DNA from: a virus
Lineage: Duplodnaviria; Caudoviricetes
IMG/VR virus record: IMGVR_UViG_3300045526_000101
Location: 1-56,770 of that record
Length of the DNA: 56,770 bases
Reading direction: 5' to 3' (one strand)
Part shown: piece after piece, positions 467 to 54,643 of the stretch
Layout: each line of letters begins with the position of its first letter
Position numbering within the stretch: position 1 is the stretch's first letter
Position numbers and translations under genes: made by a program
The notes under the pieces: generated by a model
What the model was told of the DNA's origin: nothing
Seen by the model: the letters and a program-made list of their open reading frames with translations, nothing else
Databases searched by the model: none

Positions 467-658
467 TTATTCCCAATCAAGTTGCCTTAAAGACATTTTT
501 CCATTCAGCAAATCAGCTAATTCCGCTTTGGAAACTATAGCCACATTCCATCCATCAGATGTGTCGTGGATTTCAAACTGGTCTTCTGAGACTCTGTATA
601 TCTCTCTAGTAATAAGACCAAATTTCCAGTCTTGCCATGTGTCAATAGCTTGTGTCAT
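467..658 (-). CDS. hypothetical early protein
   Basis: 63-aa ORF in a co-directional array, AT-rich leader. Confidence 0.6.
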   Translation of the reverse strand: MTQAIDTWQDWKFGLITREIYRVSEDQFEIHDTSDGWNVAIVSKAELADLLNGKMSLRQLDWE

Positions 659-674
659 TTGAATTAAATTTTAT

Positions 675-733
675 GGTTAAGACCATCGGGGCATTGCCCC
701 TAGGTTTCTGCCATTAGGCGTCATCAGTTAACC
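675..733 (-). ncRNA. hammerhead ribozyme, type I (variant stem II)
   Basis: Minus strand GGUUAA-CUGAUGA-C-GCC-UAAU-GGC-A-GAAA-CC-UA-GGGGC-AAU-GCCCC-GAU-GGUC^UUAACC: full core, 6-bp stem I, GUC cleavage triplet (cut after 681); atypical C.A at the base of stem II. Confidence 0.75.
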
Positions 734-962
734 TTGCGTTCAATTCCATATCGGCTTCCATAAATAAATCACCGAAGGCATCTGTCACCTCTGTAGGGAG
801 GTATTTTTCTATGTGCCTGTATGAACGTACTAGGGCAAAGAATTCGCCAATAAAACTTTTTATCTCCTCTAGTTCGTTATTGCTTAATCTGTCGGCATAA
901 AACTTTTCTGTAGTTATATGCTCCATGTTTTCATTGTGTTTACCATCTCCGTAAATAGCCAT
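714..962 (-). CDS. hypothetical early protein
   Basis: 82-aa ORF; its last codons and TAA lie inside the type I hammerhead. Confidence 0.6.
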   Translation of the reverse strand: MAIYGDGKHNENMEHITTEKFYADRLSNNELEEIKSFIGEFFALVRSYRHIEKYLPTEVTDAFGDLFMEADMELNARLTDDA

Positions 963-1205: not shown

Positions 1206-1236
1206 TGTAATTAGTGTTTAAGTATCTAAAATAGAG

Positions 1237-1290
1237 ACGTTTCGGCCTGTCCTTTGGCCTCATCAGTAGCGGAGGTTTACCGCTATACGC
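1237..1290 (-). ncRNA. hammerhead ribozyme, type III
   Basis: Minus strand GCGUA^UAGCGG-UAAACCU-CCGCUA-CUGAUGA-GGCC-AAAGGACA-GGCC-GAAACGU: canonical core, 6-bp stem I, 4-bp stem II, 4-bp stem III, GUA triplet (cut after 1286); loop I CCU can pair with loop II AGG. Confidence 0.9.
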
Positions 1291-1483
1291 TTTTCACTTA
1301 TTCGGCAAGTGCGAGGCGATAAATCAGCCTGTCTATTCTCCGATATAGTCTCATTCCTTCCGGCTCTAGAGACCCAACAACCTAACTTGAACATGGTCAA
1401 GGTTTGTCGCCTTCTGAACTACTAACAAAGCTTTGGGATGCCTTGTCGCCTCCGTAGAGGGTGTCGTGGATAAGTCCGTTGAC
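1291..1483 (-). ncRNA. structured 5' leader of the early transcript
   Basis: No ORF; successive hairpins (GGA-CUUA-UCC, CCUC-UACG-GAGG, CUUGA..UCAAG, GUCUC..GAGAC, AGGC..GCCU, CACUU..AAGUG); AGGCGACAA occurs twice. Confidence 0.45.
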
Positions 1484-2510: not shown

Positions 2511-2804
2511 TTAAGACTCCCTCATCATGGCTAGATACCTTACCTTCATCTGTTCTATTTCCTTGTCTTCATGCATCCAATTGGCGTAATGGTTTGCATC
2601 TTCCCAAGAGAAGAATACGCCAATAGTTTGAAAGCCATGTTCGCCATACCTTTCCACCACCCAGGCTTTCTCTAACCACACGGTCTCGTACCAAGAGTAC
2701 TCTGGTATCCAGCAGAACTTTCTTCTAATCCTAACATCTCCTGGGTTGTAACGTTTCCATTTCATATGTAAGGTTATAGCTTTACTTATTGTCTTATTTG
2801 TCAA
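2511..2804 (-). CDS. hypothetical protein
   Basis: 97-aa ORF (true start may be the internal ATG); RRKFCWIP...VWLE motif. Confidence 0.5.
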   Translation of the reverse strand: MTNKTISKAITLHMKWKRYNPGDVRIRRKFCWIPEYSWYETVWLEKAWVVERYGEHGFQTIGVFFSWEDANHYANWMHEDKEIEQMKVRYLAMMRES

Positions 2805-2950
2805 GGGATACCTTTACCCCTGAGCTGATTTAATATGCAACTTTTAATACCCCCAGAGTTGCTAACTGTGCCGCCCTACGATGCGGAATCCGAGTGAGCA
2901 GATCTTACGGTATGCCCGATTCTCTACGTCCGCCTAGCCTCAGCGGCATC

Positions 2951-3026
2951 TGTAGTCAGGACAGGATCTGCCCCTGTATCTCTCACCTACAATGATGAGG
3001 CGTTTTCTACCTTACGCCACCTGACT
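2951..3026 (-). tRNA. degenerate tRNA-like RNA
   Basis: AGUCAGG/CCUGACU 7-bp acceptor stem, GCGU/ACGC D-arm, CUCA/UGAG arm with 10-nt loop, ACAGG/CCUGU T-arm with non-canonical loop GGCAGAU; ends ACA. Confidence 0.6.
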
Positions 3027-3076
3027 ATATGCCTGTCTTTCCAGGCTGTCTGGATACGGATCAAAAACGGGCGATG

Positions 3077-3084
3077 CAAAGATA
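3077..3084 (-). promoter_or_regulatory. -7 promoter box upstream of the tRNA-like cluster
   Basis: TATCTTTG on the minus strand; no clear -33 box. Confidence 0.45.
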
Positions 3085-3353
3085 AACTCCCAACACTCGA
3101 AAATATTGTGTTACCCACGAACGTGGATAAGTAGAAATATGTTTTAAATAGTTTCTCTATTATTGTCAGACATGGTTCCACCTGCTAGGGAGTCTCCATT
3201 TAAAAGGCTGGCTAGGTTTACTCCAAGGGGAGATGTTTAAGCTGATGGCAGGAGCGACAGGGAAACCTGCTGGTTTATCCAGAGCTGCGTGACGGACGAG
3301 AGGTTGACGGTGCAGTATTTCTTCGCAAAGGCTCTTGCCTTTTAAGCGAAGCT

Positions 3354-3851
3354 TTGTTCAGAACTCAAAAGTTTCAGGTGCAGTATATAGCTAGACAGTA
3401 TAGACCCAAAGCCAAGGAGCAGAGTGACCTACTCTGTAAACTAGAGACAATAAGATTGTTCTCTACACACCCAAAGTATAGAGCTGTGATGGCGGAAGAC
3501 TTTTACCCAGATGATCCAAAGGTTCAGTACAGAGCCGACATGATCTTGACTGAGAATGGCGAACATAAGTATAGTCTGGAGGTGGAGCATAAGTGGATCT
3601 GGGATCAGGAGTTCCCCTGGCCGGATGTACAGTTCCTTCCCAGGAAGAAAGAGAAGTGGGACGATCCGAGGTTTACGTATGGTAAGCCAACCCATTTCAT
3701 TATGTATAATCGAGATGCCTCACGGCATCTGGTCATCTTCGATGACACTATACGAAATCTAGAGAACAGAAGAATGGTCAACTGCCAACAGAGGGGGCTG
3801 GAAGAATTATACTACGTACCGCTAGACCAGGTGCATTTTGACTATCTATGA
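3354..3851 (+). CDS. PD-(D/E)XK-like nuclease / hypothetical protein
   Basis: ADMIL...LEVEHK catalytic-like spacing; start uncertain (GTG 3378 plausible). Confidence 0.45.
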   Translation: MFRTQKFQVQYIARQYRPKAKEQSDLLCKLETIRLFSTHPKYRAVMAEDFYPDDPKVQYRADMILTENGEHKYSLEVEHKWIWDQEFPWPDVQFLPRKKEKWDDPRFTYGKPTHFIMYNRDASRHLVIFDDTIRNLENRRMVNCQQRGLEELYYVPLDQVHFDYL

Positions 3852-4099
3852 AAAAACACACTAAAATTTATTTAAAACATTTTGATTATGGTATCGATGA
3901 TTTTATTCCCTGCGAGGCATGCGGAAGTCGTGCTGTTGACATTCACCATATTGATTGTCGGGGTATGGGTGGCAGCAAAGCTAAAGACGAGATCGAAAAT
4001 CTAATGGCCCTGTGTAGGTCATGCCATATAAAGTATGGCGATAAAAAACAATACATAGAATTTTTAAAATCCAAACATCAATGCAGATTAGAAAAGTAG
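3848..4099 (+). CDS. HNH endonuclease
   Basis: CEACG..DIHHI...NLMALCRSCH. Confidence 0.85.
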   Translation: MKKHTKIYLKHFDYGIDDFIPCEACGSRAVDIHHIDCRGMGGSKAKDEIENLMALCRSCHIKYGDKKQYIEFLKSKHQCRLEK

Positions 4100-53338: not shown

Positions 53339-54643
53339 TTATTCGCCAAGAAACTGTTTATAATAACTCGTAACCTCAGACTTGAAGTGCCGTTCTACAA
53401 AGGCGACATATCGTTCAAAGGCTACGCTATTGGAAGCATGACCACTACAGAACTTGATGTGTCTCTCAGGTACTTTATAGTAGATCATAGTAGTGATAGC
53501 GGTTTTCCTTAACATGTGCGGATGAACGTGTTGATACATGGGTTTGGTTTCGATAACCTCTTCCCCACGAACTCCGATAGTTTTGACCGTTGTTGGATTA
53601 TGCATCTCAGGATACAGGCTAAATAGATCCGCCATGTTATTGTATATGGTAGCGTAGCGATTGTCTTTTAGCGTGTAGATTCTCCCGAACTGAGCCAGGT
53701 TACGATCAAATACCTTCGCCAAAAACTTAGGCAGAGGAACATCTGTGTATTCCCTGGTCTTTCCATTCATCTTAGACATGAACATATCGTTCTTGACGAT
53801 CCGAATATCGCTAACTGATAGATCGATGGCGTCCCTTACCCTCATTGTAGTCACCAGCATCACCGAACAGACTTCCCATACATATTTTAGCAGCTCGGGG
53901 AGGTTATTATAGGTCTTTTCATCCGTCAGAAATCGCTGTACAAACTCAGGTTCTAATACGACTACTGGATTAGGATCAGCCTGGTAAAGTTTAATCTTTG
54001 GCGGCTGAAGATATAGATGTTCCTTCCAATAGTTCAGCATCACAGATACATTTAGAATGTAATTTGCCCTGGTTGCCATGCTATAGTTCATATCGATCAT
54101 CCATTCGTCCCATCCTGTGAAGTAACTATCCCATTTGTCGGTGATAAGCCGCTTCCGTTGGATAGTATCCTTTGGACTGATAGACATCTCTAACAAATCC
54201 AGGTTTCCTGCGATCTCACTATACTCATATAAGGATTCTATTGAATATTTATAGGCACTGATCGTTCCAGGTTTAAGTTGTCTATTCCCCCTCGACTTGA
54301 TCTCACCCTTGATTGCTTTTTTTAAATATTCCCGACACAGATAAGCCAGTTCGTAGGATTCTTTAGGCTCTTCCTGTATGTCGGTATAGCATGGGTTGAA
54401 ACTAGCCTTGATCTTTTTTAAATCGCCTTTATAGGTCACGTATAGATCTGTCAGGCGTACTCTGTTTCTATTGAGATCGTTATTCATGGCCATGACTTCG
54501 GGGGAATTGCCGACAAATTTTCCCTTGTCAAACTTCATACTCTTCGGGATCTTGATGCCTGTACTCAGCCGGAGGGAAACTGTTTTACCATCCGTTAACC
54601 GGGCCTGGATCGTGTTACCTCTTGCATTAAATGAAACTGTCAT
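53339..54643 (-). CDS. int: tyrosine recombinase / integrase
   Basis: Catalytic R (TTMRVRD), K (KT), HMLR, GH, Y (FERY); N-terminal LSTGIKI arm-binding segment of Bacteroidota integrases. Confidence 0.9.
   Translation of the reverse strand: MTVSFNARGNTIQARLTDGKTVSLRLSTGIKIPKSMKFDKGKFVGNSPEVMAMNNDLNRNRVRLTDLYVTYKGDLKKIKASFNPCYTDIQEEPKESYELAYLCREYLKKAIKGEIKSRGNRQLKPGTISAYKYSIESLYEYSEIAGNLDLLEMSISPKDTIQRKRLITDKWDSYFTGWDEWMIDMNYSMATRANYILNVSVMLNYWKEHLYLQPPKIKLYQADPNPVVVLEPEFVQRFLTDEKTYNNLPELLKYVWEVCSVMLVTTMRVRDAIDLSVSDIRIVKNDMFMSKMNGKTREYTDVPLPKFLAKVFDRNLAQFGRIYTLKDNRYATIYNNMADLFSLYPEMHNPTTVKTIGVRGEEVIETKPMYQHVHPHMLRKTAITTMIYYKVPERHIKFCSGHASNSVAFERYVAFVERHFKSEVTSYYKQFLGE

Follow-up and report, generated by a model that had tools for sequence, protein, structure and literature searches.

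The minus strand of positions 733 to 675 encodes a hammerhead ribozyme that belongs to an abundant, poorly catalogued phage family, in which the type I fold is built on a stem I of GGUUAA paired with UUAACC. Located across the end of one small gene and just before the start of the next, it probably functions as a self-cleaving, mRNA-processing element that separates the cistron of ORF 714-962 from that of ORF 467-658. The base of its stem II has C10.1 opposite A11.1 and, as judged by its occurrence in other hammerhead-shaped sequences, this is a natural variation that recurs, not an isolated defect.

A type I hammerhead between two small phage genes

The window, by which we mean all of the DNA analysed, is a whole 56,770-base IMG/VR virus record. 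Genes for a large terminase, a portal protein, a primase/helicase, a RecE-like exonuclease and an integrase are present, and the terminase shares ~31% identity with its counterparts in Flavobacterium, Cellulophaga and Tenacibaculum phages. The sequencing runs that contain this phage DNA are freshwater metagenomes, and the phage probably infects a member of the Flavobacteriia. No RNA run is listed among them, and comparison of the record with one RNA run gave no match. The integrase gene is positioned toward the right end of the record (53339-54643, minus strand), a small HNH endonuclease ORF (3848-4099, plus strand) opens a rightward module, and the phage is probably temperate. The left 2.8 kb, which includes the ribozyme, has the following features.

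2-235, 240-428, 467-658, 714-962, 1074-1205, 1750-2070 and 2511-2804, minus strand: small leftward ORFs
714-962, minus strand: upstream ORF, 82 aa, ending ...LTDDA*, its final 20 nt inside the ribozyme
467-658, minus strand: downstream ORF, 63 aa, with its ATG at 658-656, 22 nt past the predicted cut
1234-1293, minus strand: type III hammerhead with a canonical G10.1-C11.1 pair (Rfam RF00008, 36.1 bits, E 3.8e-4; fold)
675-733, minus strand: whole type I hammerhead ribozyme, 59 nt (sequence, MFE fold and family model R1)

Read 5' to 3' on the minus strand, from 733 to 675, the ribozyme is composed of these elements.

728-733, minus strand: stem I, 5' strand, GGUUAA, the family signature, with a UAA in one reading frame
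721-727, minus strand: core C3 to A9, CUGAUGA, within the codons ACU GAU GAC
709-720, minus strand: stem II and loop II, made up of C10.1 (720), GCC (719-717), UAAU (716-713), GGC (712-710) and A11.1 (709)
705-708, minus strand: core G12, A13 and A14 followed by A15.1, GAAA (sequence)
682-704, minus strand: stem III hairpin, CC, an internal loop, GGGGC-AAU-GCCCC, the other side of the internal loop and GG, then U16.1 (682)
680-681, minus strand: predicted cleavage site, after C17 (681) and before U (680), placed by the hammerhead consensus
675-680, minus strand: stem I, 3' strand, UUAACC, the predicted 5' end of the downstream mRNA after cleavage

The core at 733-675 is canonical, with C3 U4 G5 A6 U7 G8 A9, G12 A13 A14, an A15.1-U16.1 pair and C17. 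The A15.1-U16.1 pair and H17, by which membership is judged, are present as A705 paired with U682 and followed by C681, in the triplet GUC. The sole departure is C10.1 (C720) opposite A11.1 (A709), in place of G10.1-C11.1. When the 59 nt are folded alone, the MFE structure corresponds exactly to the three-way junction (-19.3 kcal/mol, z -2.6); only 2 of 200 shuffles do as well, and the junction is kept when the sequence is folded in a 141-nt context. Both this fold and the alignment to all 57 positions of R1 leave stem I open and close stems II and III with loops, which is the type I topology. In the frame of ORF 714-962, the stretch from stem I through the core and into stem II is translated as L T D D A stop, and the UAA stop codon (716-714) provides the first three letters of loop II. 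The original prediction, of a type I hammerhead embedded in the end of a coding sequence with its CUGAUGA core doubling as codons of ...LTDDA* and the stop in loop II, is therefore borne out by the core, the fold, the R1 score given below and the translation of the ORF.

The Rfam hammerhead models (RF00163, RF00008, RF02275-7 and RF03152) have no match at 733-675 at their gathering scores, and searches of the whole phage record and of 131 nt at E values up to 10 also returned no hammerhead match there. The bare core pattern, CUGANGA...GAAA, occurs in the phage record at a chance rate, with 6 matches versus 4.9 expected, and was left out as evidence. The significance of the site comes, instead, from the family covariance model R1, which was built without the phage record's sequence and scores 733-675 at 46.2 bits (E 3.7e-9); the runner-up match in the record has 16.0 bits. 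Rfam Hammerhead_1 (RF00163), which has the type I topology and the same core as 733-675, matches two canonical family members, one being L100:3639-3688 at 29.5 bits, below its gathering score of 34. RAGATH-1 (RF03152) weakly matches four family members, at 28.6 to 34.8 bits, below its gathering score of 56.3, and does not match 733-675. Like the GGUUAA family, RAGATH-1 comes from microbial and phage sequence and combines the type I topology with a stem I that is short and a stem III that is long, but the additional 5' hairpin in the RF03152 model is not evident at 733-675. The C·A variant and most of the GGUUAA family escape the current Rfam models and so are missed by annotation pipelines.

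Outside stem I, the minus strand can form an 8-bp helix between 740-747 and 661-668 (GGAAUUGA with UUUAAUUC) that prolongs stem I past a 5 x 6 nt internal loop and resembles the arrangement in tertiary-stabilised type I hammerheads. A helix of 8 bp was reached in just 2 of 100 shuffles. As a family trait, an outer helix extending stem I was rejected (3.63 versus 3.90). Fast hammerhead cleavage needs a tertiary contact of loop II with stem I or with a flank. The complementarity of loop II to the flanks was 4.87 versus 4.74 for shuffles on the 5' side, and 4.13 versus 4.33 on the 3' side, no better than in shuffled sequence, and gives no support to a pseudoknot of loop II with a flank.

The product of ORF 714-962 has relatives, over its N-terminal 15-48 residues, in 8 viral contigs and matched no PHROG family. 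Relatives of the ORF 467-658 product are present in 13 viral contigs, with 49-68% identity in the best segment. An 11-nt motif, UAAAAUUUAAU, is repeated on the minus strand at 662-672 and 966-976, positioned 3-4 nt 5' of the ATGs of ORF 467-658 and ORF 714-962. Neither of these ATGs is preceded by a Shine-Dalgarno-like sequence, a feature that fits with a Bacteroidota host.

The type III hammerhead, at 1293-1234, is ~500 nt upstream of 733-675 on the same strand and transcript, and directly precedes ORF 1074-1205. Its RF00008 score is below the gathering score of 48.5, and it is predicted to cleave between 1286 and 1285. Stretches poor in ORFs (1294-1750, 2100-2500 and 2810-3350) are located between the block of small leftward genes and the structural module, which runs rightward; they have no Rfam family match. 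In contigs from two other freshwater runs, 1236-1733 is swapped for 999 other letters; the left boundary of the replaced stretch (1235/1236) is just within the 3' edge of the type III hammerhead, and the hammerheads in this phage record may be points of module exchange. One contig of run X6 matches only 399-442, ~651-671 and 992-1021, omits the two ORFs between, and has 1371 letters across a region that occupies 623 bases in the phage record (399-1021). This looks like the replacement of gene cassettes between conserved intergenic pieces. A blastn search with 400-1400 against phage records gave no match.

The GGUUAA family and its position between genes

A scan for GGUUAACUGAUGA, a gap and GAAA identified type I hammerheads with a GGUUAA/UUAACC stem I in at least 117 viral stretches. 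A contig from a freshwater run aligned to 666-715 and thereafter had a canonical stem II, and scanning viral contigs for the sequence of that contig yielded 8 loci. The family set consists of 80 loci among the matches listed, these earlier 8 loci and the phage record. It contains 91 distinct sites, among the matches listed, of which 67 are closed by U-H-UUAACC and have the full architecture. The alignment used for R1 has 62 members of no more than 75 nt, without the site in the phage record, and RNAalifold, applied to the MAFFT alignment of these 62, detected compensatory changes in 9 of 16 predicted pairs. With R1, 101 sites were found over 89 sources, with scores of 44.4 to 69.5 bits, and 733-675 ranked 98th (among the matches listed).

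In the 91 rows, from the matches listed, standard pairs occupy 95.9% of cells, versus 71.8% in shuffles and 28-42% with slid partners, in an alignment that was fitted to R1 and so favours the structure. In the same rows, among the matches listed, cells with a double change number 388 versus 119 in shuffles, and 12 of the 17 pairs have changes on both sides. Stems II and III of the family, again among the matches listed, covary strongly. The closest relative among the matches listed, L103:9664-9723, has a stem I and a stem III helix identical to those of 733-675 and a different stem III loop. Its stem II is GUCCUGAAUGGAC, versus CGCCUAAUGGCA at 733-675, a difference of four substitutions and one deletion. 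From L103:9664-9723 to 733-675, pair 10.2-11.2 changes from U-A to G-C, which is compensatory, 10.1/11.1 changes from G-C to C·A, and loop II is one G shorter.

Many loci have several family ribozymes, with eight in L183 and five in L103. In the viral contigs L183, L103, L181 and L113, four to eight family hammerheads are present within a few kb and nearly every small gene is flanked. With one family member as query, blastn against phage records returned only partial matches, to other, unannotated sites in Streptomyces and Agrobacterium phages.

Covariation among homologues was one of the checks suggested with the original prediction, and the outcome depends on which homologues are considered. 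Among the relatives of the ribozyme itself the stems are conserved by covariation, as documented above. Strain variants of the phage are identical across 351-1124, so the locus itself provides no covariation. Loci homologous through the flanking proteins (8 plus 13) have no hammerhead core at the matching place, and R1 detected the ribozyme in 0 of these 21, with one 12.1-bit match that consists of stem I letters only. As the flank-homologous loci do not have the ribozyme, stem conservation must be evaluated in the ribozyme's own homologues. Family ribozymes are found between unrelated genes in different phages.

The position of the ribozyme relative to the upstream gene was scored in the 67 full sites, among the matches listed, by following the longest frame entering the ribozyme to its stop codon. 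The counts below are all among the matches listed.

UAA of stem I is the upstream stop: 14 of 67
First UGA of the core is the upstream stop: 16 of 67
Upstream stop overlaps the first G of the ribozyme: 10 of 67
Upstream stop in stem or loop II (733-675 and L126): 2 of 67
Upstream stop later in the ribozyme: 1 of 67
Upstream stop just before the ribozyme: 19 of 67
Upstream stop after the ribozyme: 1 of 67
No long upstream ORF: 4 of 67

The upstream stop is thus inside or touching the ribozyme at 43 of the 67 sites, among the matches listed, and in most of the 67, with the same scope, the first ATG is 12-20 nt past the ribozyme. With its stop at ribozyme position 18 and an ATG 16 nt after the ribozyme, 733-675 conforms to this placement, using the rare third frame, in loop II. 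The overlap of stop codon and ribozyme to which the original prediction drew attention is, accordingly, present at this site but is the family norm and not special to it. A third-frame stop in stem or loop II is available at 36 of the 67 sites, among the matches listed, versus 19% when the interior letters are shuffled.

The C10.1/A11.1 arrangement

Positions 10.1 and 11.1 are G-C in 80 of the 91 family rows, 4 of these with an inserted base, among the matches listed. The remaining rows, with the same scope, have an extra U before G10.1 (6), U·U (3), G·U (1) or C·A (1), the single C·A being 733-675 itself. Outside the family, the pattern CUGAUGA-CGCC-loop-GGCA-GAAAC is present in 5 viral, 57 metagenome and 13 genome loci, at 57 distinct sites. 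In a simple pairing test of the flanks, 27 of these 57 sites score 10 or more, versus 1.7% of 5000 positions drawn at random from these loci. Those that are hammerhead-shaped are mostly type III, with six of type I. A wider scan that allowed any G/C triplets identified 28 loci; hammerhead-shaped sites were 11 of the 19 with a complementary stem II versus 0 of the 9 with a non-complementary stem II, and some of them carry GGC/GCC stems.

In an alignment of 15 type III C·A sites, every stem I cell is paired (100%) and 6 of the 7 stem I pairs have double changes. Across the whole alignment the paired fraction is 95.0% versus 76.5% in shuffles, and stems I and III covary. Seven of 22 rows, with a one-column MAFFT shift, were excluded (L043, L055, L064, L068, L075, L226 and L236), and a 23rd type III site, L063, at a contig edge, is not in the alignment. 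The original prediction had regarded the C·A juxtaposition as a possible mark of a variant subclass, and its recurrence in unrelated hammerheads with covarying stems supports its being a recurrent natural variant. Rfam matched 1 of 17 C·A variant sites (16 loci), at 33.4 bits, and recognised canonical hammerheads elsewhere in three of those 16 loci; the phage record likewise has both kinds. We found no hammerhead paper, in the open literature searched, that describes a hammerhead with C10.1 and A11.1.

In five metagenome and Patescibacteria contigs (L033, L037, L066, L074 and L095), two C·A type III hammerheads are present on the same strand, 675-679 nt apart, and such pairs could release a defined RNA of ~675 nt. 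L095 is titled Patescibacteria group, and there are further C·A sites in Azambacteria (L098) and Saccharibacteria (L099) contigs. At L026 5766-5789, and also in L046 and L054, a C·A site with stems I and III that are good by eye has a C in place of U16.1, and the L026 site may be a further core variant.

In Perreault et al. 2011 (PMC3088659), as far as the main text goes, 10.1-11.1 is called the most conserved pair after 15.1-16.1, and a natural U10.1-U11.1 mismatch is reported as active. The accessible text of PMC7151607 has metal ions bound by the A9 phosphate and a nitrogen of G10.1 (N7). Given this conservation and the role of G10.1 N7 as a metal ligand, C·A is expected to weaken a minimal hammerhead. 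PMC7151607, in the same text, describes a natural A6C core variant in phage Bcep176 that works with Mn2+ and poorly with Mg2+. This is, similarly, a natural phage hammerhead changed at a conserved position, with the change at A6 in Bcep176 and at 10.1/11.1 in 733-675.

Proposed transcript processing and alternative readings

The cleavage proposed at 733-675, the chemistry of the RNA ends and the effects on stability and translation derive from established hammerhead chemistry. Once the 3' strand of stem I is transcribed, the RNA would fold into the three-way junction and be cut between 681 and 680, directly 3' of C17. On the upstream side, cleavage would release an RNA that contains all of ORF 714-962 with its stop codon and terminates in the stem III hairpin, bearing a 2',3'-cyclic phosphate. 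The downstream product would start with a 5'-OH on UUAACC, the beginning of a 22-nt A/U-rich leader before the ATG of ORF 467-658. Together, 733-675 and the type III hammerhead at 1293-1234 would cut the polycistronic RNA to yield a short gene block.

Similar arrangements are known. Prophage hammerheads that are clustered and flank genes have a proposed role in processing long phage transcripts (Perreault et al. 2011, PMC3088659). As presented in the main text of that paper, these clusters resemble the family described here in having a canonical core, and several ribozymes flanking single genes or short blocks in which the gene identities are not constant; they differ in that 733-675 has C·A rather than U·U, stem I is nearly fixed as GGUUAA/UUAACC, and upstream stops are regularly embedded. 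In fungal and plant RNA viruses, type I hammerheads fill short intergenic regions just before start codons, according to the accessible text of PMC13725137. They share with 733-675 the type I topology, a long stem III, a short intergenic location and a cut a few nt before a start codon. The hosts there are, however, eukaryotic RNA viruses with the ribozyme tied to translation initiation, whereas 733-675 is in a DNA phage of bacteria.

Two other readings would deny the site a function in cleavage. Chance resemblance, or a mere terminator-like hairpin, might be argued from the chance frequency of the bare core and the silence of Rfam at 733-675, but the R1 E value, a consensus scan that found no terminator-like site on the minus strand at 733-675, and the presence of the same stems I and III in the hammerhead of an independent phage (L103:9664-9723) exclude this for practical purposes, and we give it almost no credence. 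The site could, alternatively, be a decayed or strongly impaired copy of a canonical family hammerhead, in which C·A and the shorter loop II abolish, or nearly abolish, cleavage and leave a structured intergenic spacer. It has the lone C·A of the 91 family rows and a rank near the bottom of the R1 scores (both among the matches listed), it has lost the highly conserved 10.1-11.1 pair (PMC3088659) and with it the metal-binding G10.1 N7 (PMC7151607), and mismatches of types other than U·U fare worse, according to the main text of PMC3088659. Every catalytic core base is, however, intact, and the change at 10.2-11.2 is compensatory and retains a stem II of three G-C pairs. C-[GCC/GGC]-A or C-[GGC/GCC]-A is, furthermore, shared by dozens of hammerhead-shaped sites that are unrelated and have covarying stems, and this recurrence argues against decay, which would not yield the same arrangement repeatedly. 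We therefore regard an impaired copy as improbable and a self-cleaving ribozyme as the better explanation.

Control by translation is plausible as an addition to self-cleavage at 733-675, not as a replacement for it. Ribosomes on the 5' half would keep the ribozyme unfolded, so that the RNA would be cut only after termination, with the timing set by translation of the upstream gene. This would accommodate the stop codon in loop II of 733-675, the upstream stops inside or touching the majority of full family sites, the UAA (stem I) and UGA (core) that supply stops in two frames of the 5' half, and the excess of third-frame stops over shuffled sequences. A ribosome halted at any of these stops would occupy the RNA from stem I to stem II, core included. 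Compact phage genomes do, however, overlap signals without coupling them, the third-frame excess may reflect a loop II consensus of U-R-A, and, as cleavage is irreversible and needs just one ribosome-free interval, such gating might be kinetically trivial. In the main text of PMC3088659, 'stop codon' and 'translation' each occur 0 times; its supplementary alignments may contain C·A members. We consider translational gating, the idea of the original prediction extended here to the whole family, rather unlikely. A broader reading would join both themes. C10.1/A11.1 hammerheads would be a natural, selected subclass that dispenses with the G10.1 N7 metal ligand and may form an A+·C wobble, with a pH- or metal-dependent cleavage that is tunable, not constitutive, and the GGUUAA family would be a portable 'gene-end cassette' of Bacteroidota phages, with stops in up to three frames, a cut site and a leader, between which unrelated genes are swapped and at which terminating ribosomes time the cut. 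This combination is speculative and, taken as a whole, we think it unlikely to be correct.

Phage hammerheads were already known. The GGUUAA family is large and very uniform: its ribozymes regularly begin within or directly at the stop codon of the preceding gene, and the next start codon follows at a short, fixed distance. Placing 733-675 within this family offers a specific and testable model of how ribozymes may process operons in Bacteroidota phages. The C10.1/A11.1 arrangement removes a base treated as a metal ligand, and with it the most conserved stem pair; should C·A ribozymes prove active, nature would thereby have provided a test of what the A9/G10.1 metal site contributes.
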